A stretch of 64,000 bases of DNA from a bacterium (GCA_965261595.1 CBDHDG010000007.1:736001-800000), one strand, 5' to 3'; shown: positions 32,961 to 64,000, counted from the stretch's first letter. Notes: a model not told the origin generated them from the letters alone. Made by a program: numbers and translations.

Positions 32961-33632
32961 CTATGACGCGCCCGCCACCGCGGCCTGCTCATCCGCCACC
33001 GTCTCCCAGGACGCCTGGACCTCCTTCGCCGTGGAGACCACGCCGAAGTACTCGTCGATGATCCGCTTCGTCCCTTCTTGAAGGGCCGGGTCGAACGTGC
33101 CGCAGCAGTCATCGACCAGGACGACATAGTAGCCCAGGAAGAAGCCGTGGCGCGAGGCGGACTCGACGCAGCACTCGGTCGTGCAGCCGGTCATGAGCAG
33201 GGTGTGGATGCCGTTGGACTTGAGGACCACGTCGAGATTCGTCCCTTCGAAGGCGTCATAGCGGTGCTTCGTGACGATGACCTCGCTCTCCTTTGGCTTC
33301 AAAATGTAGAATTCCTGTCCCCAGGTGTCCGAGAGGCACGGGGCGCGGTTGTGCGTCCGCCGCTGCGTCCTTTCCTTCTGGTTGTTCCCGATGAATACGT
33401 CATCGTAAGCGCAGCGGATCCAGACGACCTGGACGCCGTGCGCCCGGGCCACGTCGATGAACTTCTCCAGGCGAGGGACCATCTCCTGAATGTCCTCCAG
33501 CGGCTGGTCCCGGCCGCCCTTCCCCATCCAGCCGTCGGTGGCGCAGAAGTCGTTCTGGACGTCCACGACGATGATCGCCGAATGGTCGGGAAACACCTTC
33601 TCGTCGAAGGACGTGAAAAGGGGCGCTTGCAT
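32961..33632 (-). CDS. Isochorismatase-family cysteine hydrolase
   Basis: VVDVQNDFC, KHRYDAF, GCTTECCVES (D-K-C triad). Confidence 0.9.
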   Translation of the reverse strand: MQAPLFTSFDEKVFPDHSAIIVVDVQNDFCATDGWMGKGGRDQPLEDIQEMVPRLEKFIDVARAHGVQVVWIRCAYDDVFIGNNQKERTQRRTHNRAPCLSDTWGQEFYILKPKESEVIVTKHRYDAFEGTNLDVVLKSNGIHTLLMTGCTTECCVESASRHGFFLGYYVVLVDDCCGTFDPALQEGTKRIIDEYFGVVSTAKEVQASWETVADEQAAVAGAS

Positions 33633-53020: not shown

Positions 53021-54199
53021 ATGATGGCCGTGGGCGGCCGCTTGATCTCGCGCAACTTCGTGTTTCTGGTGGCGGGGAACCTCTTTCTGTTCCTCGCCTA
53101 TCTGAGCTATCAGCTTCTGCCCCTGCACATCAAGGCCTTGGGTGGCGGGGAAACCGACATCGGCTGGGTCATGGGAGCGCCCAACCTGATGTCCGTCGTC
53201 CTCACGCCGGTCTTCGGGATCTTTGTGGACCGATTCGGCCGTAAGCCCTTCCTCCTGATGGGTCAGTGCTGCGTTGCGGTGTCCTGTGGGGGGTTCCTGA
53301 TTGCGGGAGATTCGTTCTTGCTCTTCGCGGCGCTGCGGACGGTGCAGAACGTGGGGGTGGCCATGGCCTTTACGGCTGGCGGGGTGCTCGTCGCCGATAC
53401 GGCGCCCAAAGGCCAATTGGCCCAGGCCCTCGGCGTGTACGGCATGTTCGGCATGGTCGCGCACGCCCTCGCGCCGGCCATCGGCGAGTTTGTGATTTCC
53501 GCGGGAGGCTTCTATTCCCTGTTTGTCTTGACGGTGGCATACGGGGTCGTGGGCCTTTCTCTCGTTTCCAGGGTGAGGGAGGCTGCGCCGCCGGCCGCCG
53601 CCGGGGAATCGGACTCCATATGGCGGGTTTTCATCCGGGCCGGATTCACGCAGATCATGCTCCTGGGTTTCCTGAACGGGGCGGCTTTGGGTACGGTGAC
53701 GACCTACGTCCCCACGTACATCCGGAGCCGGGGCATCCAGTGGATCAGCCTCTTCTTTATCACTTACACCGTGACAGCCATTTTCATCCGGGTGGGTTTC
53801 GGCCGTTTGTCCGACCGGCTTGGACATCGGCGGATCATCGCTCCCGCCTTCTTCGTATTGATCGCGGGGGTTTGGTTTCTGAGCGAGGCCAAGGCCCAAT
53901 GGATGTTCGCGTTGGCGGGCGTTCTCAACGGGACCGCCCACGGGTTCCTCTTTCCAGCCATCAACGCCCTGGCCCTCAATCGTTCCAGCGATGGGAACTT
54001 CGGAAAGGCCCAGTCCCTTTTCGGCGCCGCTTTCAGCGCGGGAATGACATTGGGGGTGTTCTCCCATGGGGTGATCGCGGCCGCCTTCGGCTACAGCGCG
54101 ATGTTCCTTTCCCTGGCGTGCTGGATTCTCGTGGGTCTTCTGATTTTCCTGGTCTGGGATCAGAGAGACCGGCGAGCCTCGGATGGTTACACCGCATAA
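53021..54199 (+). CDS. MFS transporter
   Basis: About 12 TM segments; DRFGRK and GRLSDRLGHR motif A. Confidence 0.9.
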   Translation: MMAVGGRLISRNFVFLVAGNLFLFLAYLSYQLLPLHIKALGGGETDIGWVMGAPNLMSVVLTPVFGIFVDRFGRKPFLLMGQCCVAVSCGGFLIAGDSFLLFAALRTVQNVGVAMAFTAGGVLVADTAPKGQLAQALGVYGMFGMVAHALAPAIGEFVISAGGFYSLFVLTVAYGVVGLSLVSRVREAAPPAAAGESDSIWRVFIRAGFTQIMLLGFLNGAALGTVTTYVPTYIRSRGIQWISLFFITYTVTAIFIRVGFGRLSDRLGHRRIIAPAFFVLIAGVWFLSEAKAQWMFALAGVLNGTAHGFLFPAINALALNRSSDGNFGKAQSLFGAAFSAGMTLGVFSHGVIAAAFGYSAMFLSLACWILVGLLIFLVWDQRDRRASDGYTA

Positions 54200-54277
54200 A
54201 AGAGGTTTCTCATCACCAGGCCGGCGTCCGGCGCCGAGACAAATGTAAAACCTGAGCCACCAGGAATTTGATTTGAT

Positions 54278-54360
54278 CAACAACATCTTGTGTATTTTTG
54301 AAGGTGGGTTCCAAGATATTGTATTTTGTCTTGACAACGTATTCCATAGTAAGTTAAGCT
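54278..54360 (+). promoter_or_regulatory. Tandem NrdR-box-like motifs followed by a sigma70-like promoter
   Basis: Cores CAACATCTTG (54281) and CAAGATATTG (54312), 31 bp apart; TTGACA (54331)-18 bp-TAAGCT (54355). Confidence 0.6.
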
Positions 54361-54368
54361 TCTCCTTA

Positions 54369-54660
54369 GAGCCTGGGCGCCATCGGGACTCGTGAAGTTT
54401 CATCGGTCTGGTGATTTAGTTGGCAGGGGAGGCCTGAAAACGTTGCGGGTTTTGGATGTTGCAGGGCGTCGGAAAGGAGGTGGGGTCTAGGGGAATCTGG
54501 CGTCCCGGTCCGCACGAGGTTTGGTTGCCCGCTTGAACGGGAAACGTTGAGTCGGTTGAATGCGCAGGCCAAGAACCTAGATGAGGTGTTCGGAAATTCG
54601 TCTTCCGGATGAGCGGACAAACGGTGCGGTAGTCGGCGGCAGATAAAGGCGCCCAGGCTC
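54369..54660 (+). ncRNA. Candidate structured ncRNA closed by a 13-bp terminal stem (family not recognised)
   Basis: GAGCCTGGGCGCC ... GGCGCCCAGGCTC; no credible ORF; begins about 8 nt after the putative -10. Confidence 0.45.
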
Positions 54661-54739
54661 GATTCATTTGGTTCGTTTCCCGCCGAAAAAAACGTTGTTT
54701 TCAACCCATTTCTTACCTCTTGGATTCGTGATTATACCC

Positions 54740-54804
54740 TTGACGCAACCGACCACTACATGTAGTAAAACGGACCAAAAAGGCCGAACCACAAGATGTA
54801 GATA
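54740..54804 (+). promoter_or_regulatory. Second NrdR-box-like pair overlapping a TTGACG promoter
   Basis: Cores CTACATGTAG (54756) and CAAGATGTAG (54792); TTGACG at 54740. Confidence 0.55.
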
Positions 54805-54870
54805 TGGAAGACCGAGTTGAGTAGGAGTACTGGAATTGTTGCATGGATTTTTTTATGGAATAGATATTAC

Positions 54871-56538
54871 CCCGCATTTCCCATATGGATCATAAGTTTT
54901 GTCGGACCGAATGCCATTTTCTCGTGTAAGATCAAGGTGTTGGCCTCTCCCTGCCATCATCTTGCGAGGGGACCCAATGGGTGAAGCGAAGAAGGGGGCT
55001 TTGAAGATCCGTTTTGACCGTCGGCTGAGGCTTGAGTTTCACGGAACCAGAATCACTTCGGATGCAGGATTGCTGGCCTGCCGGGAGCTGGATGATGCGC
55101 TGGGTTTGACGGTGAGAGCGCCAGTGCAATTGCAAGAGATCCGTCATGGCCGGAACATCCAGCATGAGTTGGCGCCGCTATTGCGCCAGTCGGTCTATAG
55201 CCGCTTGGCAGGGTATGAAGACACCAACGATGCCGAGCGGTTGGCCCAGGACCCCGCGATGCAAGCCGTGGTCGGCCGCCGAGCGCTTGAGAAGCAGGCG
55301 GCGGGCGCCAACACCCTGAGCCGGTTCGAGACCGAGGTTCTCACCAGGGAGGAGAATCTCAAGGGGCCGGAGCGAGCTGAACCGGGAGTGGGTGGACCGG
55401 GCCATGGCACACTCACCCCATCAGCGAATCATCCTGGACATGGACAGCTCGGAAAGCCCCGTCCATGGGGAGCAGGAAGGTACGGCCTACAACGGCCACT
55501 TTCGTTGCACCTGTTATCACCCTCTTTTTTGCTTTAACCAGTTCGGGGACTGCGAAGGGGCGATGTTGCGCCCCGGCAACGTGCACAGCGCCGATGGCTG
55601 GCGCGAGTTGCTTTCGCCCATCGCGGCCCGGTATGAGCGGGCGGGTGTTCGCCGTTACTGCCGAGCCGATGCCGCCTTTGCGCGCCCGGAGGTCTATGAG
55701 TGCCTGGAAGCGCACAGCTTCCTTTACGCCATCCGCCTTCCCGCCAACGACGTGGTGCAGCGAGAGATCGACTTCCTCCTCACCCGCCCGGTCGGTCGCC
55801 CGCCCAAGAGACCCATCATCTTCTATTACGACTTCCGGTATCAGGCTGGAAGCTGGGACCGTTCCCGGCGGGTCGTGGCGAAGGTGGAATGGCACTCAGG
55901 CGAACTCTTCCCTCGCGTCGGATTCATTGTCACGAACCTGACGGCTCGACCCGAGGGGGTCGTGCACTTCTACAACCAGCGAGGCACAGCCGAGCAATGG
56001 ATCAAGGAAGGCAAGTACGCCCTGAACTGGACACGCCTTTCCTGTCACCGGTTCGTGTGCAACCAGGTGCGGCTCCTTCTCTTCGTCCTGGCGTACAACC
56101 TGGGCAATTTCCTGCGCAGGCTAGCCTTGCCCAGGGGGCTCAAGCACTGGTCGCTGCGAAGCCTCCAGGTCAAGCTCATCAAAATGGGCGGGAGGATTGT
56201 GCGGCACGCCCGGCAGATCATCTTTCAATTGGCCGAAGTAGCGGTATCCAGGGAAGAGTTCGCCATCATCCTGGACCGAATCAACCGATTACGGCCGGTG
56301 CCGGTCTAACCTTGTGCAGAGGGTTCCCGGCAGCATGAGGTGATTGGTTAACGGGTTGAACCGCGAACAAAGGGGACCGAAGGGCGAGGGTCCGCCTTTT
56401 GGGGCAGTCGATGGCCGTCAGCACCTTGTTGCGGAGGGTTGGAAGGCTCTTGACAAACCCATCGGAAGGGGATCAACTGGTTTTCATCGGGAAAGGGGAC
56501 CGGAAACCACCCAAGCAAGTTGATATGGGAAATTCCGG
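54871..56538 (+). mobile_element. IS1380-family insertion sequence
   Basis: TIRs CCCGCATTTCCCATAT / ATATGGGAAATTCCGG (14/16), ~1.67 kb, single transposase gene. Confidence 0.88.
54977..56309 (+). pseudogene. IS1380 transposase, frameshifted near 55370
   Basis: ITSDAGLL, GYEDTND; second frame ILDMDSS, CYHPL, RADAAF, YNQRGTAEQWIKEGK. Confidence 0.85.
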
Positions 56539-56589
56539 TTAAAACAAGCATGAAGGGTATGCCTTTTCTCTAAATGGACTGAAAGACAT

Positions 56590-56900
56590 CAAGGAACGGA
56601 GATGTTTGGACCTGGACCGCTATTTGTGCGGATACCAAACTCGTTCCCTCGTGGATGGCCGGTTATCGGACCCTGAAACACGCAAAAATCTTCTTTGGCG
56701 ATTTGGTGGCTCGGTTAGCGAACCGTGTTCAACTGACAACCGATGGTCACCGCTCCCATCTTCAGGCTGTTGAAGAAACCTTTGGGGCTGATATCGACTA
56801 CGCTCAGTGGGTCAAGATCTACGGCCCTGAGCCTGAGGGTGAGTCGCGGTACAGCCCTGGGAAGTGCAACGGAGCGGAGAGACACAAGATTCAGGATTAC
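56590..56900 (+). pseudogene. IS1-family DDE transposase fragment
   Basis: VWTWTAICADTKLVPSW, LANRVQLTTDGH, FGADIDYAQ.VKIYG, RYSP; lacks both ends. Confidence 0.7.
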
Positions 56901-57270
56901 AGCTGCCCCCCCATTGGGTGAGGGGGACATGATGTGAGGTAGGAATTATCTTGAAGAGGCTCAACGCCCTTCAATATATTCCTTCTCGCAAAATTTACAA
57001 GGCCCAATTTTGGATTGGTGTGTCTTGGTGTCGAGAGGGAACGGTTATGCTTTGGGAGCCAGACTGCATGGATTCTGATCAAAGATACGATCAGACTGAA
57101 CCGACAGAAAAATCCACAGGCCCGGCTGTGGTTACGGTCAACGGAAGCACGATCGCCTACATCCGCTCCCTTTCAGAAGCGATTGGGGAAGCGGCTGTCC
57201 CTCCCTCCACTCGTTCCCTCATTCGTTCCCTTAAGAAATTGGAAGCCGCTTTTGCCACATGTCGCCTGAC

Positions 57271-57321
57271 CCCCTACATCTAGTGGTCAGCCGAGACGCG
57301 GCCGCGATCTACATGTTGTGG
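57271..57321. promoter_or_regulatory. Third NrdR-box-like pair
   Basis: Cores CTACATCTAG (57274) and CTACATGTTG (57309), both followed by TGG. Confidence 0.45.
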
Positions 57322-58007
57322 TCGTCTGCGTCAAGTATATAAGAGCGCTTGGATTTCGTGTAATGCTTGCGGATTGCCTCCTTTTCGCTTGAAAAATCCT
57401 CCCGGTGTTTACTTCTCAGCATCCATTCGTAGTAGCGTCCGCCCGGCAGGTGGTAGACTCTCGTCTTTCTGTTTCCGATGACAGGGGGTCCGAGGGGGGG
57501 GAGGGGGAGGGGGGGAGGGCCTGACCGCCCCCGCTTGGCCGGAAGGCGCGACCAAATGCCCTTTCGAGCGGCCCGGGCCTTTCTTTCCAGCTCGCGAAAC
57601 AGGTCCGCGAATTTCAAGTTGGGCGGATAGGGCGACGCCCTTGCGTATCCCTCCGCCACCAGAAGGGCATTCACAAAAACGCCGTTGGGGAGGTAGACGT
57701 AGGAAAGCAGCCGTCCGTACCTGTCCACGGGGTCGCGGCCGAGCTCAAGCCGGACCGTTTTTCCTTGAATGAGCTTGCGTAGGAACGCGGCGGCCTCTTT
57801 CCCGAAAAACCCGACCGATTTCCTCGGGTGACGGGTTTCAGGGGTGTCGACGCCGATGATGCGCACACTGACGTGGAAGGTGTCGCCATCGACCACGCGC
57901 CTGACTTTTACCGTCTGGGAAAAGGCGGATTCAGCCGCAAGCAAACCAAGAGCGGAAACATGGAAGAGGAAAAATAGGAGAAGCTTGTTTTGGGTCAATA
58001 TGCTCAC
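57309..58007 (-). CDS. Secreted thermonuclease (SNase) family protein with a C-terminal YH-motif domain
   Basis: Signal peptide, VVDGDT, RIIGVDTPE, DRYGRLLSYV, GNRKTRVYH. Confidence 0.88.
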   Translation of the reverse strand: MSILTQNKLLLFFLFHVSALGLLAAESAFSQTVKVRRVVDGDTFHVSVRIIGVDTPETRHPRKSVGFFGKEAAAFLRKLIQGKTVRLELGRDPVDRYGRLLSYVYLPNGVFVNALLVAEGYARASPYPPNLKFADLFRELERKARAARKGIWSRLPAKRGRSGPPPLPLPPLGPPVIGNRKTRVYHLPGGRYYEWMLRSKHREDFSSEKEAIRKHYTKSKRSYILDADDHNM

Positions 58008-58317
58008 GTTCGGACATGGCTAAGATTTTGTTATTCTTTCGTCAGACGTTAAATATAAGGTATATGACCATATTTTCAATAGTAAACTCATTTCTTCTCC
58101 ATACCTGTGTGGATTCGCGGGGCCCGTGGCATCAAATCTCGCGTTTTCCCGGTGGATTCTCCTGATCGCGGAAAAATCCCGTTGATGAGGACCGCGCGGG
58201 AAAATATGTATACCGGGCATACCGGTTGGATGCTTTGTTCAATCTATCCCGGCCCGGTGAATCGAGATTCGCTGAAACGCTCCGCCCGGCGATCGGCCGG
58301 CCATCCTGGGAATCGTC

Positions 58318-60081
58318 ATGGCGAAGACCAAAGGAAACAAGGGCCCCTACTCGATGTGGGAGCTTGCCGGTTATCTGAAAAGTTTTCGGGGCCGTCTTGC
58401 CGGGGGGTTCATCCTGTTGATGGCGGCCAACGCCCTGGCGATCACGATCCCCTGGATCCTCAAAGACGCCATCGAGGGTCTTCGGAAAGGGTCTTCCCCG
58501 GACCTCCTCCTATGGCCCGCTTTGGCCATCGCCGCGGCGGCTGTCTTTCAAGCCGTCGTCCGGATCGCTTCCCGGCACATGTTCCTGGGGGTGAGCCGCG
58601 GCGTCGAGTACGACATTCGCACGGAGCTCTTCCGGCGCCTTCAGTCGCTGTCGCCCTCTTTTTTTCAGAAGACCACGACCGGCGACATCATGTCCCGCGC
58701 CACGAACGACCTGAACGCCGTCCGCATGGTCCTGGGGCCCGGCGTCACGCACGGCTTGAATTCCATCATCATCTACCTCTTCGTGGTTTCGGCCATGGCG
58801 GCCATCAGTCTCCAGCTCACGTTCTTCGCGGTCATCCTGTTCCCGCTCTGGCTTCTGGGGATGAGGCGCTTTTTCCGCAGCCTCAACGAAATCTCTAGGC
58901 GGTCCCAGGAGACCCTGGGCGATATCAGCACTAAAATTCACGAGAATCTCTCCGGGATGATGGTGGTCAAGCTCTTTGTTCAGGAGGACCACGAGCGCCG
59001 CGCGTTCGGAAAGCTGAATGACGCCTACCTCGATCTGACGGCCCGGCACGCAAAACTGCGCGCGTTCATCTTCGCCCTCATGACGGCCCTGGGCGGCGTG
59101 GGGGCGTTGGTCATCCTGTATCTCGGGGGCCGGTGGGTGATCGCCGGCGATATCACGCTCGGGGCCTTTGTGGCCTTCAACAGCTACCTGGCCATGCTGC
59201 TCTGGCCGACCCTCGCCCTGGGCTGGATCCTCGGGCTTTTCCAGCAGGGAAAGGCGTCCTGGGAGCGGTTGAGCTGGATCTTGAAGCAAAAGCCCGACGT
59301 CCGGACGGTGGGGGTCGAGCCGTCCCGGCCGGTTCGCGGAGAGATCGAGGTCCGGGGCCTGCGGTTCGCCTATGACGGCGGGCCAGATGTACTCAAGGGG
59401 CTGAGCTTCCGTCTCTCTCCGGGCGAGAAGGTCGCCATGGTGGGCGGGATCGGGTCCGGGAAATCAACCCTCGTGAGTTTGCTCACCGGGCTTCTGCCGG
59501 CCCCGGTGGAGACGGTCTTCCTCGACGGGATGGACGTGAACCGGTATTCGCATGAAGCCCTCCGCAAGGCCGTCGCCCTGGTTCCCCAGGACCCCTTTCT
59601 TTTCTCCCGGACGGTTCACGACAATGTGGCCTTCGGGGGGGACGCGCCGCCTTTCGAGGCCGTCCGCGCCGCGACGGACGCCGCGCGCTTCACGGTCGAG
59701 ATTGAGCGGTTTCCCGACGGCTTTCAGGCCATGATCGGCGAGCGCGGACTCACCCTGTCCACCGGCCAGCGGCAGCGGACGACCATCGCCCGCGGGATCG
59801 TCGAGAACCACCGGATCCTCATCCTGGATGATGTCCTTTCGAGCCTCGACGCCGAGACGGCCCGGGAGATCCTCGAGGAGATCCGCCGGTGGGGGAAAGA
59901 TCTCACCCTGCTCTTTGTTTCCCACAACCTCTCGGCGGCCCGGCAGGCGGACCGCATCCTGGTCATGGATGACGGCCGCGTCGCCGAGGAGGGGACGCAT
60001 GAAGCGCTGATGGAGCGCGGGGGGATCTACGCGCGGATGCACGAGCGCCAGCGCCTCATGGCTGAATTGGAGACCCTCTGA
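58318..60081 (+). CDS. ABC exporter, fused permease/ATPase (heterodimer subunit 1)
   Basis: TMD with GDIMSRATND; GGIGSGKS; degenerate signature LSTGQRQR; ILDDVLS. Confidence 0.92.
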   Translation: MAKTKGNKGPYSMWELAGYLKSFRGRLAGGFILLMAANALAITIPWILKDAIEGLRKGSSPDLLLWPALAIAAAAVFQAVVRIASRHMFLGVSRGVEYDIRTELFRRLQSLSPSFFQKTTTGDIMSRATNDLNAVRMVLGPGVTHGLNSIIIYLFVVSAMAAISLQLTFFAVILFPLWLLGMRRFFRSLNEISRRSQETLGDISTKIHENLSGMMVVKLFVQEDHERRAFGKLNDAYLDLTARHAKLRAFIFALMTALGGVGALVILYLGGRWVIAGDITLGAFVAFNSYLAMLLWPTLALGWILGLFQQGKASWERLSWILKQKPDVRTVGVEPSRPVRGEIEVRGLRFAYDGGPDVLKGLSFRLSPGEKVAMVGGIGSGKSTLVSLLTGLLPAPVETVFLDGMDVNRYSHEALRKAVALVPQDPFLFSRTVHDNVAFGGDAPPFEAVRAATDAARFTVEIERFPDGFQAMIGERGLTLSTGQRQRTTIARGIVENHRILILDDVLSSLDAETAREILEEIRRWGKDLTLLFVSHNLSAARQADRILVMDDGRVAEEGTHEALMERGGIYARMHERQRLMAELETL

Positions 60082-62017
60082 TGCCTCATGTTTCCGGCGC
60101 GGTCTACTCGGAGGAATCCCCGGGTAAGTTTTATGACGGAAGGCTCCTGAGACGGCTGGTCAGGGGATATGCCGGTCACCATCGGCGTCTGCTTTTCGCC
60201 GCTCTGTTTTGCCTGCCCCTGGCGGCCCTCTTGGAGCTCGTCCAGCCCTATCTGCTGAAGGTGGCGGTGGACGACCATTTGACCAACGGACGGCTGAGCG
60301 GCCTTCTCTCGATTGCCGGGTGGTTCCTGCTGGCGGTGATCCTGCTTGCCTTGGTCCGCTTCGCGCAGACGTACACGGTCCAGCTCCTCGGCCAGCGGGT
60401 GACGCACCGGTTGCGGGAGGAGTTGTTCGCCCGCGTTCAGCGCCTACCCCAGACCTATTTCGACCGGACGCCCGTGGGCAGGCTCCTGACCCGGATGACG
60501 TCGGATGTCGAGGTGATCCAGGAAATGTTCGCCTCCGGGGTGGTTTCGGTGGTCGGGGACGTTTTCCTCCTGGTCGGGATCATGGGGGCCATGTTGTGGC
60601 TCAACGCGGGCCTCGCCCTGTTGACCTTTGCGGCCATCCCCGTCCTGTTGATTTTTACGTTTTGGGTTCGGCCCCGCATCCGGGACGCGTTCCGGCAGGT
60701 CCGGGCCAAGCTGTCCGAGATTAACACCTTCCTCGCCGAACACCTGAGCGGGATGGCCATCGTCCAGCTTTTCCGCAAGGAGAAGGAAACGGGCGTGCTT
60801 TTCGAGGCGCTCTCGGGCGAGTACCGAAAAAAGGCGCACCAGGCGATTCTCTATGATGTGTGCCTGTATGCCCTGGTCGAGGCCACCGGGGCGATCGTGG
60901 TGGCGGGGATGATCTGGTACGGCGGCGGCCGCATCCTGGAAGGGACGCTGACGTTCGGTGTGCTGGTCGCCTTTCTCGGCTACATCCACAAGTTCTTCTC
61001 GCCGCTCATGGACCTGTCCTCGAAATACACGATCATGCAATCCGCCATGGCCGCCCTCGAGCGGATCTTCAGCCTTCTGGACGAAGAGACCGACCACGCG
61101 CTGGCGGGGGCTTCCGGGCGGGAACCGGCCTCGGGCGTCGCCGCCGTTCCATTTTCAGGCGACGGGAGCGATGGCCTCCATGGCGGCAAAGGCCCGGCCA
61201 TCGCATTCGAGGAGGTGGATTTCTCCTACGACGGCCAACAAGAAGTGCTGCGCGGCGTCAGTTTCCGCGCCGAGGCGGGAGAGACCATCGCCCTGGTGGG
61301 GGCGACCGGGGCGGGGAAAAGCTCCTGCCTGAAACTCCTTTGCCGGCTCTACGACCCCCAAGGCGGCCGCATCACGATGGACGGCGTGGACATCCGCGAA
61401 ACTCCCGCCCGGGACCTCCGCCGCCGGATCGGGATGGTGATGCAGGACGTCTTCTGTTCTCGGGGGACATCTACCGGAATATCCGCCTGGGGGACGAGTT
61501 GATCGACGAGGAGACTGTCCGCGCGGCGGCCGAAGAGGTCGGGGTGTGGGGGATGATTCGCAAGTTCCCCAACGGATTTGAGTCCAGTGTCCTGGAGCGG
61601 GGAAGCAACCTGTCGGCGGGCGAGCGCCAATTGCTCTCCCTCGCGAGAGCGGTTGTCCGCCGCCCGGACGTCCTCCTCGTGGACGAGGCCACTTCGAACC
61701 TCGATCCCTCGACGGAGTACGAGATCCAGCGGGTCCTGGGCGCCATCTACGGGAAGACGACCACCCTCGTCATCGCCCACCGCCTCTCGACGGTCAAAAG
61801 GGCCGACCGTATCGTGGTCCTCCACAAAGAGAAAGTCCGCGAGGTGGGCACGCACGCGGAGCTGCTGGCGCGGGGCGGGATTTACGCGCGCCTATACGCC
61901 CTTCAGTACCGTCAGCAGGAGTCGGAGACGGGGATCGGGCTCGAAATCGGTAAATCCGCCAACGGCCGCAACCCCGGAAGTCGCCCGGACGAGGACAAGC
62001 TATTTTCCGGGGAATAG
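60081..62017 (+). CDS. ABC exporter, fused permease/ATPase (heterodimer subunit 2), frameshift near 61455
   Basis: GATGAGKS in frame 1; LFSGDI..LSAGERQL..DEATS..IAHRLST in frame 2. Confidence 0.85.
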
Positions 62018-62103
62018 CGCCGGAGTCTGAGGTGACTGGCATAGGGATTGCTCGGCTATGTGGGCGCCATCGGTGGTAGGTGCGACACCATGTCGTACTT
62101 TCC

Positions 62104-62133
62104 ATTGACAATCGCACCCAAGATGTCAATACT
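62104..62133 (+). promoter_or_regulatory. Promoter with a palindromic operator upstream of the hicB/hicA-like pair
   Basis: ATTGACA-N13-TGTCAAT; the left arm contains the -35 TTGACA, with AATACT 17 bp downstream. Confidence 0.5.
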
Positions 62134-62258
62134 TCATTGTGTTATTCACGATTGAACCCCTTTGCTTGGGAAAGGTGAATAATCCGCCAAGGCGGCAACG
62201 GAGGTTCGAAAATCCTTGCACGCGAAGGGTGGTGTTTGCCAATAAGGGGAGAGATATC

Positions 62259-62720
62259 ATGAGCCGCTGCCCGCTTCTGTTCACATTCAAAGACATAGTT
62301 TCCGGAAACGGTTTTCTTACGGATATTGAGGCGCACGGCCGCATCCTCGGGGTGCAGGAGGGCGGCGGGGTGTGGATGTACGGTGTCCGGCCGGGCGGCC
62401 TCGCGGCTGGCGGAAAGGACGAAGGGGAAGCCTATTTAGAGTTTCGCCAAGCGTATCGGTCGGTTCTATACGACATCGCTGAGGAGGCTTCCGATTTTCC
62501 TGACTTCAAGGGGCGGGTTGAAAGGTTCTTCCGAGAAACCTGCGAAGAGACCGAAAACGAATGGCGAGAGGCCCTGACCGACGTGAGGGAAGGACGTTTG
62601 AAAGTCGAGGGGCTGCTGATTAAATCGGCGGATTCCAAGCCCTACATCAAGGTCAAACGGATGCAGCGATTCACGGCGAAGGACAACGCTCTGGAACCCC
62701 AAAGATCTCTCGCCGCCTGA
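62259..62720 (+). CDS. Hypothetical protein, HicB-like antitoxin candidate
   Basis: RBS AAGGGGAG; QEGGGVWMYGVRPGGLAAGGKDEGEAY resembles the HicB E-x-GG..PG..G.T..EA pattern. Confidence 0.5.
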   Translation: MSRCPLLFTFKDIVSGNGFLTDIEAHGRILGVQEGGGVWMYGVRPGGLAAGGKDEGEAYLEFRQAYRSVLYDIAEEASDFPDFKGRVERFFRETCEETENEWREALTDVREGRLKVEGLLIKSADSKPYIKVKRMQRFTAKDNALEPQRSLAA

Positions 62721-62724
62721 ACCC

Positions 62725-62970
62725 GTGGCTTCTTTTGGACAAATACGTCTGAAGAAGGTCTGGAATATGTTGGATGACCGCGCACCCGGACACACCTTCA
62801 AAGAGACAACGCACAATTTTTGCGTAATGTATAACGGTAGAACCTACCCGTCTTTACCGAAAGGTGGACACGGCAAGAAAAGCCCCGAAATCGAGATAGG
62901 ACACGTCAGACAGATGGTCAGGCACCTTCAAATTGACCGGGATTGTGCAAGGCGATACGTGCAACTTTGA
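62725..62970 (+). CDS. Small basic protein, HicA-like toxin candidate
   Basis: 81 aa; TTHNF..LPKGGHG..EIEIGHVRQMVRHLQI resembles HicA H...P.H..EI..G..R.I. Confidence 0.5.
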   Translation: MASFGQIRLKKVWNMLDDRAPGHTFKETTHNFCVMYNGRTYPSLPKGGHGKKSPEIEIGHVRQMVRHLQIDRDCARRYVQL

Positions 62971-63298
62971 ACCCCCTCCACCCCCCAATCCTCCAGCATT
63001 TTTAGCCCGAAGGCTTCTTCCGGCCCGGTCCCCGGCTCCCGGTACGCTGGACATGGGGTCAAATCTGATACTCTAACATTCTGGTCCATACTGTCAGGCT
63101 GGCTTGAAGTTCCAGTTGTACACCCTCCCCTGGCTTCGCGGCTATAATTTCAAAGGGAATGAAGGAAGATTTTGCGCCCACTGGACGATAGCGGTTACGT
63201 GTGCGTGGGCCGCAAGATCATGATGTCCCGTCCCGCGGGTCAATCCGGCAGTACAGCGGATCAAGAATGGCACGTTGAAGCATCCGATGTTTTTGAGT

Positions 63299-63347
63299 TT
63301 ATCCACATGTTGTGGCAAACTTGTGGATAATTCCCTAGATGTTGACG
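63299..63347. promoter_or_regulatory. DnaA boxes interleaved with a fourth NrdR-box-like pair
   Basis: TTATCCACA (63299-63307), TGTGGCAAA (63311-63319, 1 mismatch to TTWTNCACA), TGTGGATAA (63322-63330); cores CCACATGTTG (63303) and CTAGATGTTG (63335). Confidence 0.6.
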
Positions 63348-63371: not shown

Positions 63372-64000
63372 ATGCCTGATTCACCCCAAGCGACTGCTCA
63401 TCCATCGAACAGGACCCGCCAGTCCGGATTGAAGCGGACATTGACTGCGATTTCAAATATTTATGGGAATCCAGCGTGGTTCCCGGATGAATCGGCGGAT
63501 GGCCGGGATGTCCTGAGCGCCCTCATCCTGACGATCCTCTCCCAAGCCACGACGGACGGGAATCGGGACGTTGCCTATGCGCTCCTCCGGCGGCGCTTCC
63601 CCACGTGGGAGAAGGTCCTCGAGGCCGACGTAAACAAGGTCGAGGAGGCGATTCGGCCGGGCGGCCTCAGCCGGCAGAAGAGCGCCCGAATTCAGGCGCT
63701 CCTCGCTTGGCTCAAAAAGACCCGGAATGAGCTTTCCGCCGAGTTCCTCCGCGACCTCGATCTCCCCGAGGCCATGGACCGGATGGGACACCTGCGGGGG
63801 ATCGGCGTCAAGACGCTCGGCGTGGTCCTCATGTTCACCTGCGGCCGGGATGTGTTCCCGGTGGACACGCACGTCCATCGCGTCTGCCGCCGGCTCGGCC
63901 TGATCGATGAGAAGTGCTCCGCCGAGAAGGCCCACGCGGAGATGGCAAATCTCCTGAGACCCGGCGAGAGCTACGCGGCGCACGTGAATTTCTGGAAGTT
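63372..64000 (+). CDS. nth: Endonuclease III / HhH-GPD DNA glycosylase (partial)
   Basis: Hand translation: LILTILSQATTD, IRPGGLSRQKSARI, LRGIGVKT, FPVDTHVHRVCRRLG; runs off the window. Confidence 0.88.
   Translation, partial: MPDSPQATAHPSNRTRQSGLKRTLTAISNIYGNPAWFPDESADGRDVLSALILTILSQATTDGNRDVAYALLRRRFPTWEKVLEADVNKVEEAIRPGGLSRQKSARIQALLAWLKKTRNELSAEFLRDLDLPEAMDRMGHLRGIGVKTLGVVLMFTCGRDVFPVDTHVHRVCRRLGLIDEKCSAEKAHAEMANLLRPGESYAAHVNFWK

Follow-up and report, generated by a model that had tools for sequence, protein, structure and literature searches.

Why should a stretch of bacterial DNA that carries no ribonucleotide reductase gene hold four tandem pairs of boxes resembling the operators of NrdR, the dATP/ATP-sensing repressor? 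The question is raised by the window analyzed here, a 64-kb stretch (C7:736001-800000) of genome G000, which is an assembly of 6.17 Mb in 7 contigs with 96.7% completeness and 5.6% contamination. An earlier examination of this sequence alone (hereafter, the original prediction) had read the pairs, all located between 54278 and 63347, as an extended deoxyribonucleoside triphosphate (dNTP)-responsive regulon covering a non-coding RNA and DNA repair, or as an array of sites with a structural or replication-linked role. Our analysis revealed that the enrichment of boxes in this region is real and has two unrelated causes: pairs 2 and 3 belong to the ends of a transposon, and pairs 1 and 4 are conserved operators. 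In the reading that we consider probable, two unrelated things share one short motif, the ends of an IS1595-family element on the one hand and operators of NrdR on the other. Comparisons were made among seven genomes of the family in four genera, consisting of G000 and six relatives (G001 to G006), of which G001 belongs to the same genus as G000, and G005 and G002 are two small (2.1-Mb) genomes from one small-genome genus of the family.

Counts and geometry of the boxes

The exact core CWANATNTWG occurs eight times in the window, against 0.59 expected occurrences (standard deviation, 0.73), and none of 100 shuffled sequences reached eight, which sets the density apart from background. Seven of these matches (54281, 54312, 54756, 54792, 57274, 57309, and 63335) fall within 54281-63344, and one more lies outside the pairs at 33300. 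The eighth paired box, at 63303, has the core CCACATGTTG, with a single mismatch at a non-conserved position of the NrdR box. The start-to-start spacings of pairs 1 to 4 are 31, 36, 35, and 32 bp, respectively, corresponding to linkers of 15, 20, 19, and 16 bp. The eight cores, their arrangement in four pairs, and their spacings are therefore as the original prediction had described them, and a scan of the window with a position weight matrix (PWM) found no further tandem pair beyond the four, in agreement with its remark that the first 54 kb appeared free of such pairs. Its observation that the window lacks a reductase gene also held, the sole one found in the genome being nrdJ on another contig (C6:121892-124817).

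Published work describes both the NrdR box and the rules for its spacing in detail (PMC12051234, PMC13584703). According to a mutational study, the highly conserved positions are C4, A6, A8, T9, T11, and G13, and the AT content between C4 and G13 should be at least ~63% (PMC13584703). For four NrdR proteins, linkers of 15-16 bp are optimal and lengths of 14-18 or 24-27 bp are still accepted (PMC12051234, section 2.5 and Table 5), and linkers of 19-20 bp are listed as binding the four proteins 7- to 300-fold more weakly than those of 15-17 bp (PMC12051234, Table 5). When read as 16-mers, all eight boxes of the window carry all six positions, and their AT content between C4 and G13 ranges from 62.5 to 88%, with pair 4 box 1 (five of eight positions) at the limit. 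The linkers of pair 2 (20 bp) and pair 3 (19 bp) lie outside both the optimum and the tolerated ranges. The PWM was built solely from 14 boxes in nrdJ promoters of the family, and true nrdJ sites score 10.7-22.4 bits on it; the scores were 19.7 and 16.0 bits for the boxes of pair 1, 18.0 and 14.7 bits for those of pair 2, and 17.1 and 12.9 bits for those of pair 3.

Pairs 2 and 3 as ends of an IS1595-family element

A single decayed mobile element accounts for pairs 2 and 3, which mark its two ends and are not promoter operators. This IS1595-family element occupies 2,621 bp (54727-57347), is bounded by inverted repeats, and has no intact transposase of its own. The left terminal inverted repeat (54727-54804, plus strand), which is 85-87% identical to four other ends, contains pair 2 (boxes at 54753-54768 and 54789-54804), and the right repeat (57268-57347, minus strand), which shares 94% identity with the ends seen in a family of 11 copies described below, contains pair 3 (boxes at 57271-57286 and 57306-57321). 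The element starts with CGTGATTATACCCTTGACGC and finishes with the inverted terminus GCGTCAAGTATATAAGAGCG, and the same 8-bp direct repeat, CTTGGATT, stands on both outer sides (54719-54726 and 57348-57355). In G001, alignment revealed an empty site with the uninterrupted sequence CTCTTGGATTTCGTGTAAT, and this empty site together with the target-site duplication identifies 54727-57347 as an insertion. The original prediction had assigned pair 2 to a promoter interrupted by an insertion sequence and pair 3 to the 3' end of a nuclease gene; both assignments give way to the inverted ends of a single insertion that is absent from G001.

A tblastn search with the transposase of the family inside the window element returned nothing significant (best E, 0.95), indicating that the window copy is a non-autonomous or decayed derivative. 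The element harbors a nested insertion sequence (54867-56540, plus strand) with a frameshifted DDE_Tnp_1_4 transposase detected by Pfam (open reading frames [ORFs] at 54899-55537 and 55392-56309), for which 21 other alignments longer than 1.5 kb were found in the genome (98.7-99.8% identity among the seven listed), and a repeated fragment follows at 56541-56897. On its right side, the element meets a staphylococcal-nuclease-like gene (57309-58007, minus strand; Pfam SNase), whose stop codon now lies inside the right repeat. In-silico excision of the element extended the nuclease frame by just four codons beyond the junction, which shows that the insertion clipped the extreme 3' end (the last four codons) of the gene. 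The order of events would be an IS1595-family element inserting at the 3' end of the nuclease gene and later being struck by another insertion sequence.

Approximately 25 related elements with the same boxes are scattered across the genome, which contains 174 cores in total and 43 close pairs, nearly all of which recur identically as the two ends of repeated elements. One family of 910 bp has 11 copies with 99.8-100% identity, an interior of 45% GC, and inverted repeats of ~87 bp, each containing two boxes in direct orientation at a spacing of 35 bp; at 6 of the 11 copies, the same AT-rich 8-mer is legible on both flanks, and the sole ORF carried encodes 160 amino acids with the look, by eye, of a two-pass membrane protein. 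In another family of 960 bp (~10 copies), the box spacing differs between the ends (26 versus 38 bp), and identical 8-bp flanking repeats stand at five of the six copies looked at. Genome-wide, the linkers of the element ends are 19, 20, 10, or 22 bp. A transposase with DDE_Tnp_IS1595 and Zn_ribbon_IS1595 domains lies right beside the repeat at C6:352754-356895, the single transposase-bearing copy, and larger relatives carry a DNA methyltransferase, a GmrSD-like nuclease, or two-gene cassettes of unknown family as cargo.

These elements resemble the IS1595 family at large in that the autonomous copy encodes a DDE_Tnp_IS1595 transposase with a zinc ribbon, passenger genes are carried, and non-autonomous derivatives abound. 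They differ in their long repeats (~80 bp), each with two subterminal boxes fitting the NrdR box, and the window copy differs further by having a nested insertion sequence and no transposase. The termini (CGnnATTAT and onward) and the 8-bp duplication fit the ISNwi1 group of this family in ISfinder; a search of the literature on the end structure of IS1595 or ISNwi1 elements found nothing usable. Three IS1595-family elements (C6:352754-356895, C5:447437-450659, and C7:1227703-1229432) have defence-like or unknown cargo, which includes among them a protein with GmrSD_N and HNH domains, a DNA methyltransferase gene split by an IS3-type element, and two unknown ORFs. At two copies of the 910-bp family (C6:1667270-1668182 and C7:905605-906514), the flanking 8-mers are exchanged, with ATCATCCT standing to the left of one and to the right of the other and GTTTTTTC placed in the reverse manner, which indicates recombination between copies or an assembly join.

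The close fit of the repeat boxes to the NrdR box invites a reading in which all four pairs are functional NrdR sites. The elements would then have adopted host boxes, a dNTP sensor would gate the transposase promoter or transposition, and ~50 ends would titrate NrdR. All four transposon boxes in the window carry the six NrdR positions with an AT content of at least 75% in the core and scores of 12.9-18.0 bits, TTGACA precedes the outer box in the repeat much as it does at the nrdJ and dcd promoters, and most substitutions among element variants fall at positions 5, 7, 10, and 12, which NrdR does not read. We also fetched 80 loci of homologous transposases from other phyla, of which 77 were usable after 3 with less than 200 bp of upstream sequence had been dropped; none of the 77 had two boxes upstream, which would make the boxes specific to this lineage, although this is a weak comparison because no terminal repeats were recognizable at those loci. 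Sites for host factors do occur in transposon ends, such as the DnaA box in the outside end of IS50 and the integration host factor site in IS10. The likeness to these cases lies in the motif of a host DNA-binding protein inside a terminal repeat; the difference is that the off-phase linker of 19-20 bp disfavors a host-factor reading here. Linkers of that length, for which much weaker NrdR binding has been measured (PMC12051234, in its tabulated linker series), or of 10 and 22 bp in the 960-bp family, are all that the elements offer, and the spacing is never 31-32 bp in any variant, including those of another genus (G006), where related ends keep their boxes at 35-37 bp. Moreover, the outer box at the left end of the transposase-bearing copy does not keep C4 and A6, a second variant departs from A6 and G13, and the inner box is conserved along with a flanking GGCTGA, bases that NrdR does not need. 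Taken together, these features make functional NrdR control of the transposon ends very unlikely in our judgment.

In our preferred division of the pairs, the boxes in the repeats would bind the zinc-ribbon transposase of the element and overlap the inward promoter of the repeat (TTGACA, 17 bp, TAGATC), as in many insertion sequences. The zinc ribbons of NrdR and the transposase share 29% identity over 48 columns (pairwise E, 4e-4), a weak likeness which hints that similar folds may read similar DNA and thus offers a lead as to why the motifs resemble each other. As a practical warning, transposon ends can mimic the motif of a regulator almost perfectly, and it is the linker length that separates them from true sites.

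Pairs 1 and 4 as candidate NrdR operators

The first box of pair 1, CAACAACATCTTGTGT (54278-54293), is a candidate NrdR box with all six positions and 75% AT between C4 and G13, and the second, TTCCAAGATATTGTAT (54309-54324), follows after a 15-bp linker. Downstream lie a putative promoter on the plus strand (54331-54359), composed of TTGACA (54331-54336), 17 bp, and TTAAGC, and a conserved structured non-coding RNA. Pair 1 is unique in the genome, and the pair with the next 300 bases is found in four of the six relatives and in none of 34 genomes from the other two families of the class. The boxes are conserved in G001, G003, G004, and G006, and one metagenome contig from a close relative adds a sixth example. 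When the genomes are aligned, the boxes read CAAyATsTTG and CwAnATrTTG at a spacing of 31-32 bp, with TTGACA 6-7 bp further on. In this alignment, TTGACA is invariant and the second hexamer reads TTAnGC in the relatives. The linker diverges freely between relatives while the boxes stay, which marks pair 1 as a footprint.

Pair 4 consists of the candidate NrdR boxes TATCCACATGTTGTGG (63300-63315), in which the six positions are present and which overlaps a -35-like hexamer, and TCCCTAGATGTTGACG (63332-63347), separated by a 16-bp linker. It overlaps the promoter-like site TCCACA-18-GATAAT at 63302-63331 and precedes an nth-like endonuclease III gene (63372-63998, plus strand; Pfam HhH-GPD), which runs off the window. 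The genome holds no second copy of this pair either, and TCCACATnTTGTG does not vary among the five aligned genomes (G000, G001, G003, G006, and G002). Upstream of nth, G001, G003, and G006 all retain pair 4; in each of them, an nth orthologue lies downstream of the same box pair and both boxes carry the six NrdR positions. G002 retains the pair in part, with the six positions present in box 1 but not in box 2. Conservation in relatives, which had been proposed as a check on the original prediction, was thus found for both pairs in the form of footprints that extend across genera.

The genome encodes NrdR itself (TIGR00244, 196.3 bits, over the cut-off; Pfam Zn_ribbon_NrdR and ATP-cone). Its single reductase gene, nrdJ, is of class II, and NrdD and a reductase small subunit were looked for in the genome and not found. 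The nrdJ promoter of G000 has the boxes CCACTATATCTAGTGT and CCGCAGGATATTGTGC 31 bp apart, and boxes are present upstream of nrdJ in all six relatives (with a spacing of 42 bp in G005 and of 31-32 bp in the other five), some of them nearly identical to those of the window, for example, CCACTACATCTTGTGG and ATACAACATGTTGTGG. Pairs 1 and 4 therefore combine the six positions, a linker of 15 or 16 bp, and the AT content of NrdR operators with the presence of nrdR in the genome and a match to its own nrdJ promoter. They would be operators of NrdR in which the 16-bp boxes and the 15- or 16-bp linker provide the geometry for an NrdR tetramer. Pair 4, lying over the putative nth promoter, would repress nth when dATP is plentiful, and pair 1, just upstream of the -35 hexamer, could repress or activate the RNA.

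Known operators at reductase promoters (Escherichia coli nrdAB, nrdHIEF, and nrdDG; Streptomyces coelicolor nrdAB and nrdRJ), as far as they are described in PMC9110341, PMC12051234, and PMC13584703, are similar in having two partially palindromic 16-bp boxes with the six positions and an AT-rich core, a non-conserved linker of 15-16 bp, placement at a promoter or promoter-like site, and an NrdR with a zinc ribbon and an ATP-cone. The difference lies in the targets, which here comprise an RNA, nth, hup, smc, dcd, mutL/mazG, and vsr, and in the position of pair 1 upstream of the -35 hexamer.

Our scan of the genome for tandem boxes returned 69 pairs, of which 55, at spacings of 35, 36, 26, or 38 bp, belong to repeated or transposon-type ends. 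Exactly eight unique pairs have a spacing of 31-32 bp, and non-transposon pairs at other spacings (18-48 bp scanned) number one each at 33, 42, and 45 bp. The eight unique sites lie at nrdJ, a Vsr gene, the HU gene (hup), smc, dcd (dCTP deaminase), the divergent mutL/mazG region, nth, and the RNA, so that the genome scan with a matrix from nrd promoters, as suggested in the original prediction, led mostly to DNA-metabolism genes. The functional coherence of these genes, together with the canonical geometry, makes NrdR the best candidate regulator. Across the seven family genomes, the six-position pattern with a 15- to 16-bp linker has 28 matches, in contrast to 1 for the reversed-pattern control. 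A stricter core yields exactly one match in each of six genomes (none in G002), and in G000, G003, G004, and G006 this match is the RNA promoter. Among the other sites, that of hup is kept in G001, G004, G005, and G006; that of dcd in G001, G004, and G006; that of smc in G001, G004 (weak), G005, and G006; and that of mazG in G001, G004, and G006. In G003, the search for dcd itself found no gene. In G006, the dcd match (L222, C1:3527749-3528303) has an in-frame TGA, 55% identity overall with an 89%-identical core, and upstream tandem boxes that are kept; this gene may be damaged.

Together with the sites at nrdJ, dcd, mutL/mazG, hup, smc, and vsr, pairs 1 and 4 would make up a broadened NrdR regulon that serves the supply of DNA precursors, DNA repair, and the proteins of the nucleoid. 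The dNTP-responsive regulon of the original prediction is accordingly retained for these two pairs, on the strength of the nrdR gene, the nrdJ match, the cross-genus footprints, and the set of eight sites, and abandoned for pairs 2 and 3. Over the seven genomes and four genera, such a regulon would join precursor supply and sanitation (nrdJ, dcd, mazG), repair (nth, mutL, vsr), nucleoid proteins (hup, smc), and an abundant RNA. In contrast, the literature, in the part of it represented here, treats NrdR as a reductase-specific repressor with the exception of topA in Pseudomonas; all NrdR-regulated genes described were reductase genes until topA in Pseudomonas aeruginosa was added (PMC4409342). 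The topA case is alike in being a non-reductase gene of DNA metabolism, and its control may be positive (PMC4409342). It differs in having a single box, whereas full tandem pairs with canonical spacing occur here at approximately seven non-reductase loci and are conserved across genera. If confirmed, the regulon would provide a simple model of a dATP/ATP sensor coordinating replication-linked functions. We found no report in the literature of NrdR sites at hup, smc, dcd, mazG/mutL, nth, or a non-coding RNA. Rodionov and Gelfand reportedly mentioned a few replication-related genes in 2005.

Several observations weigh against this assignment. Pair 4 scores low on the nrdJ-derived PWM (10.4 and 8.4 bits), and the pair-4-like site of G004 does not adjoin nth. 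Pair 1 ends 6 bp upstream of TTGACA and does not lie over the promoter, which is atypical for NrdR repression, the -10 hexamer of that promoter is poor and was missed by a sigma-70 consensus scan, and G001 has a G at position 8 of the second box. Upstream sites were not found for smc and mazG in G003 or for dcd and mazG in G005, and the vsr gene was not found in the five relatives searched with the G000 protein. NrdR is assigned as the binding protein by motif, geometry, and co-occurrence with nrdJ, all read from sequence, and is to that extent a candidate. On the transposon side, the role of the repeat boxes in transposase binding is likewise a proposal, and weak binding of NrdR to them may occur, as their six positions and PWM scores would fit.

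A further complication is that pair 4 contains two perfect inverted DnaA-type 9-mers, TTATCCACA, at 63299-63307 (plus strand) and 63322-63330 (minus strand), 23 bp apart, and TTWTCCACA occurs only 62 times in the whole genome. Pairs 1 and 4 could accordingly be operators of another protein, such as DnaA at the nth promoter or a regulator of unknown identity that also acts at nrdJ, and both TTTTCCACA and TGTGGA(T/A)AA are indeed kept in G001 and G003, which, like the low PWM scores of pair 4, would fit such a protein. The second 9-mer, however, is lost in G006 (TGTCCATAA) and G002, whereas both boxes retain the six NrdR positions in G001, G003, and G006; it also overlaps the -10-like GATAAT, which can explain its conservation where it is kept. 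Pair 1 has no DnaA-type box in the relatives. The same motif stands at nrdJ in all seven genomes, with the wider spacing in G005 noted above, and NrdR is the only known user of a tandem site with that motif and spacing as far as the accounts in PMC13584703 and PMC12051234 extend. We consider an operator of another protein unlikely. A structural or replication-linked array, the other possibility raised in the original prediction, found no support: DnaA boxes formed no cluster, no origin signal was seen, four or more relaxed DnaA boxes did not fall together in any 600-bp stretch of the genome, and GC skew along the contig was weak.

Because the core is short and degenerate and the region is rich in mobile DNA, pairs 1 and 4 might also have arisen by chance, or be transposon ends that have decayed and now lack a function. 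Between the ATP-binding cassette (ABC) transporter genes and nth, there is a two-gene cassette of unknown family (62139-62970, plus strand; 193 and 81 amino acids; no Pfam match), whose products show 39% and 46% amino-acid identity to IS1595-family cargo at C7:1038938-1040150. In G001, similarity to the window begins at 63296, and the cassette is absent between the transporter genes and nth, which identifies it as an insertion specific to G000, possibly a toxin-antitoxin-like pair that an earlier insertion left behind. G001 nevertheless has pair 4 without the cassette. Each pair occurs once in the genome and is preserved across genera despite a diverging linker, the spacing of both is 31-32 bp as opposed to 35-36 bp at the element ends, and the single match of the reversed-pattern control stands against the 28 of the true pattern. 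Chance or decay is, in light of these observations, scarcely credible, and pairs 1 and 4 continue to be best described as candidate NrdR operators.

The structured RNA and neighboring features

The RNA downstream of pair 1 (54367-54670, plus strand, ends approximate; covered by contigs over 54375-54664) has a consensus fold of 98 pairs in which 90.4% of the cells are paired. Compensatory changes affect 22 pairs, compared with 11.0 ± 2.4 in shuffled alignments (none of 500 reached 22) and 4-10 in slid controls, and the many G-U pairs place the RNA on the plus strand. A search of the whole window against Rfam at gathering thresholds gave no match, and a search of 54150-54800 at E values up to 10 gave two implausible eukaryotic or viral matches only. 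The RNA contains an invariant Shine-Dalgarno-like GGAAGGAGGUGA.

Public RNA data contain this sequence as a discrete, abundant transcript. Fourteen RNA runs contained 41-58% of the sampled words of 54200-54760, and four runs from four studies each yielded one contig of 257-290 nucleotides (nt) with 100% identity and zero cover on the flanks (54375-54664, 54379-54635, 54376-54634, and 54383-54631), although such contigs are imprecise for ends and levels. One contig joins 54634 back to 54376 in a 259-nt head-to-tail unit. The contigs are identical across the metatranscriptome studies, mostly labelled marine, yet G001 differs by ~5% overall; a widespread strain or a shared contaminant is a possible explanation. 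When metagenomes were scanned with a 17-mer that is invariant in the RNA, 55 loci were returned, one of which (L189, from a close relative) was matched by the RNA profile over its full length. The remaining 54 were read as chance, including L205, which was matched over 30 positions only (E, 3e-4).

Should NrdR control of pair 1 be confirmed, this orphan RNA would gain a regulator and a testable condition. We tentatively entertain, as a reading with somewhat less than an even chance of being right, that NrdR is a global regulator of DNA metabolism in the family, that its best operator outside nrdJ gates this undescribed RNA of 260-300 nt, and that the RNA represents a new class tied to dNTP sensing, possibly with a circular form as suggested by the head-to-tail junction.

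In the small genomes G005 (L051, 1501-1542) and G002 (L067), the sole perfect tandem NrdR-like pair lies behind a minus-strand TTGACA and is followed by ~330 nt of non-coding sequence and then a glycosyltransferase-like gene. By eye, the leader that follows this pair contains none of the conserved blocks of the RNA.

Upstream of the cassette and nth in the window, the second ABC transporter gene (60081-62017, plus strand) is split into two overlapping frames, 60081-61502 and 60860-62017, which reflects a frameshift near 61450 or a sequencing error.

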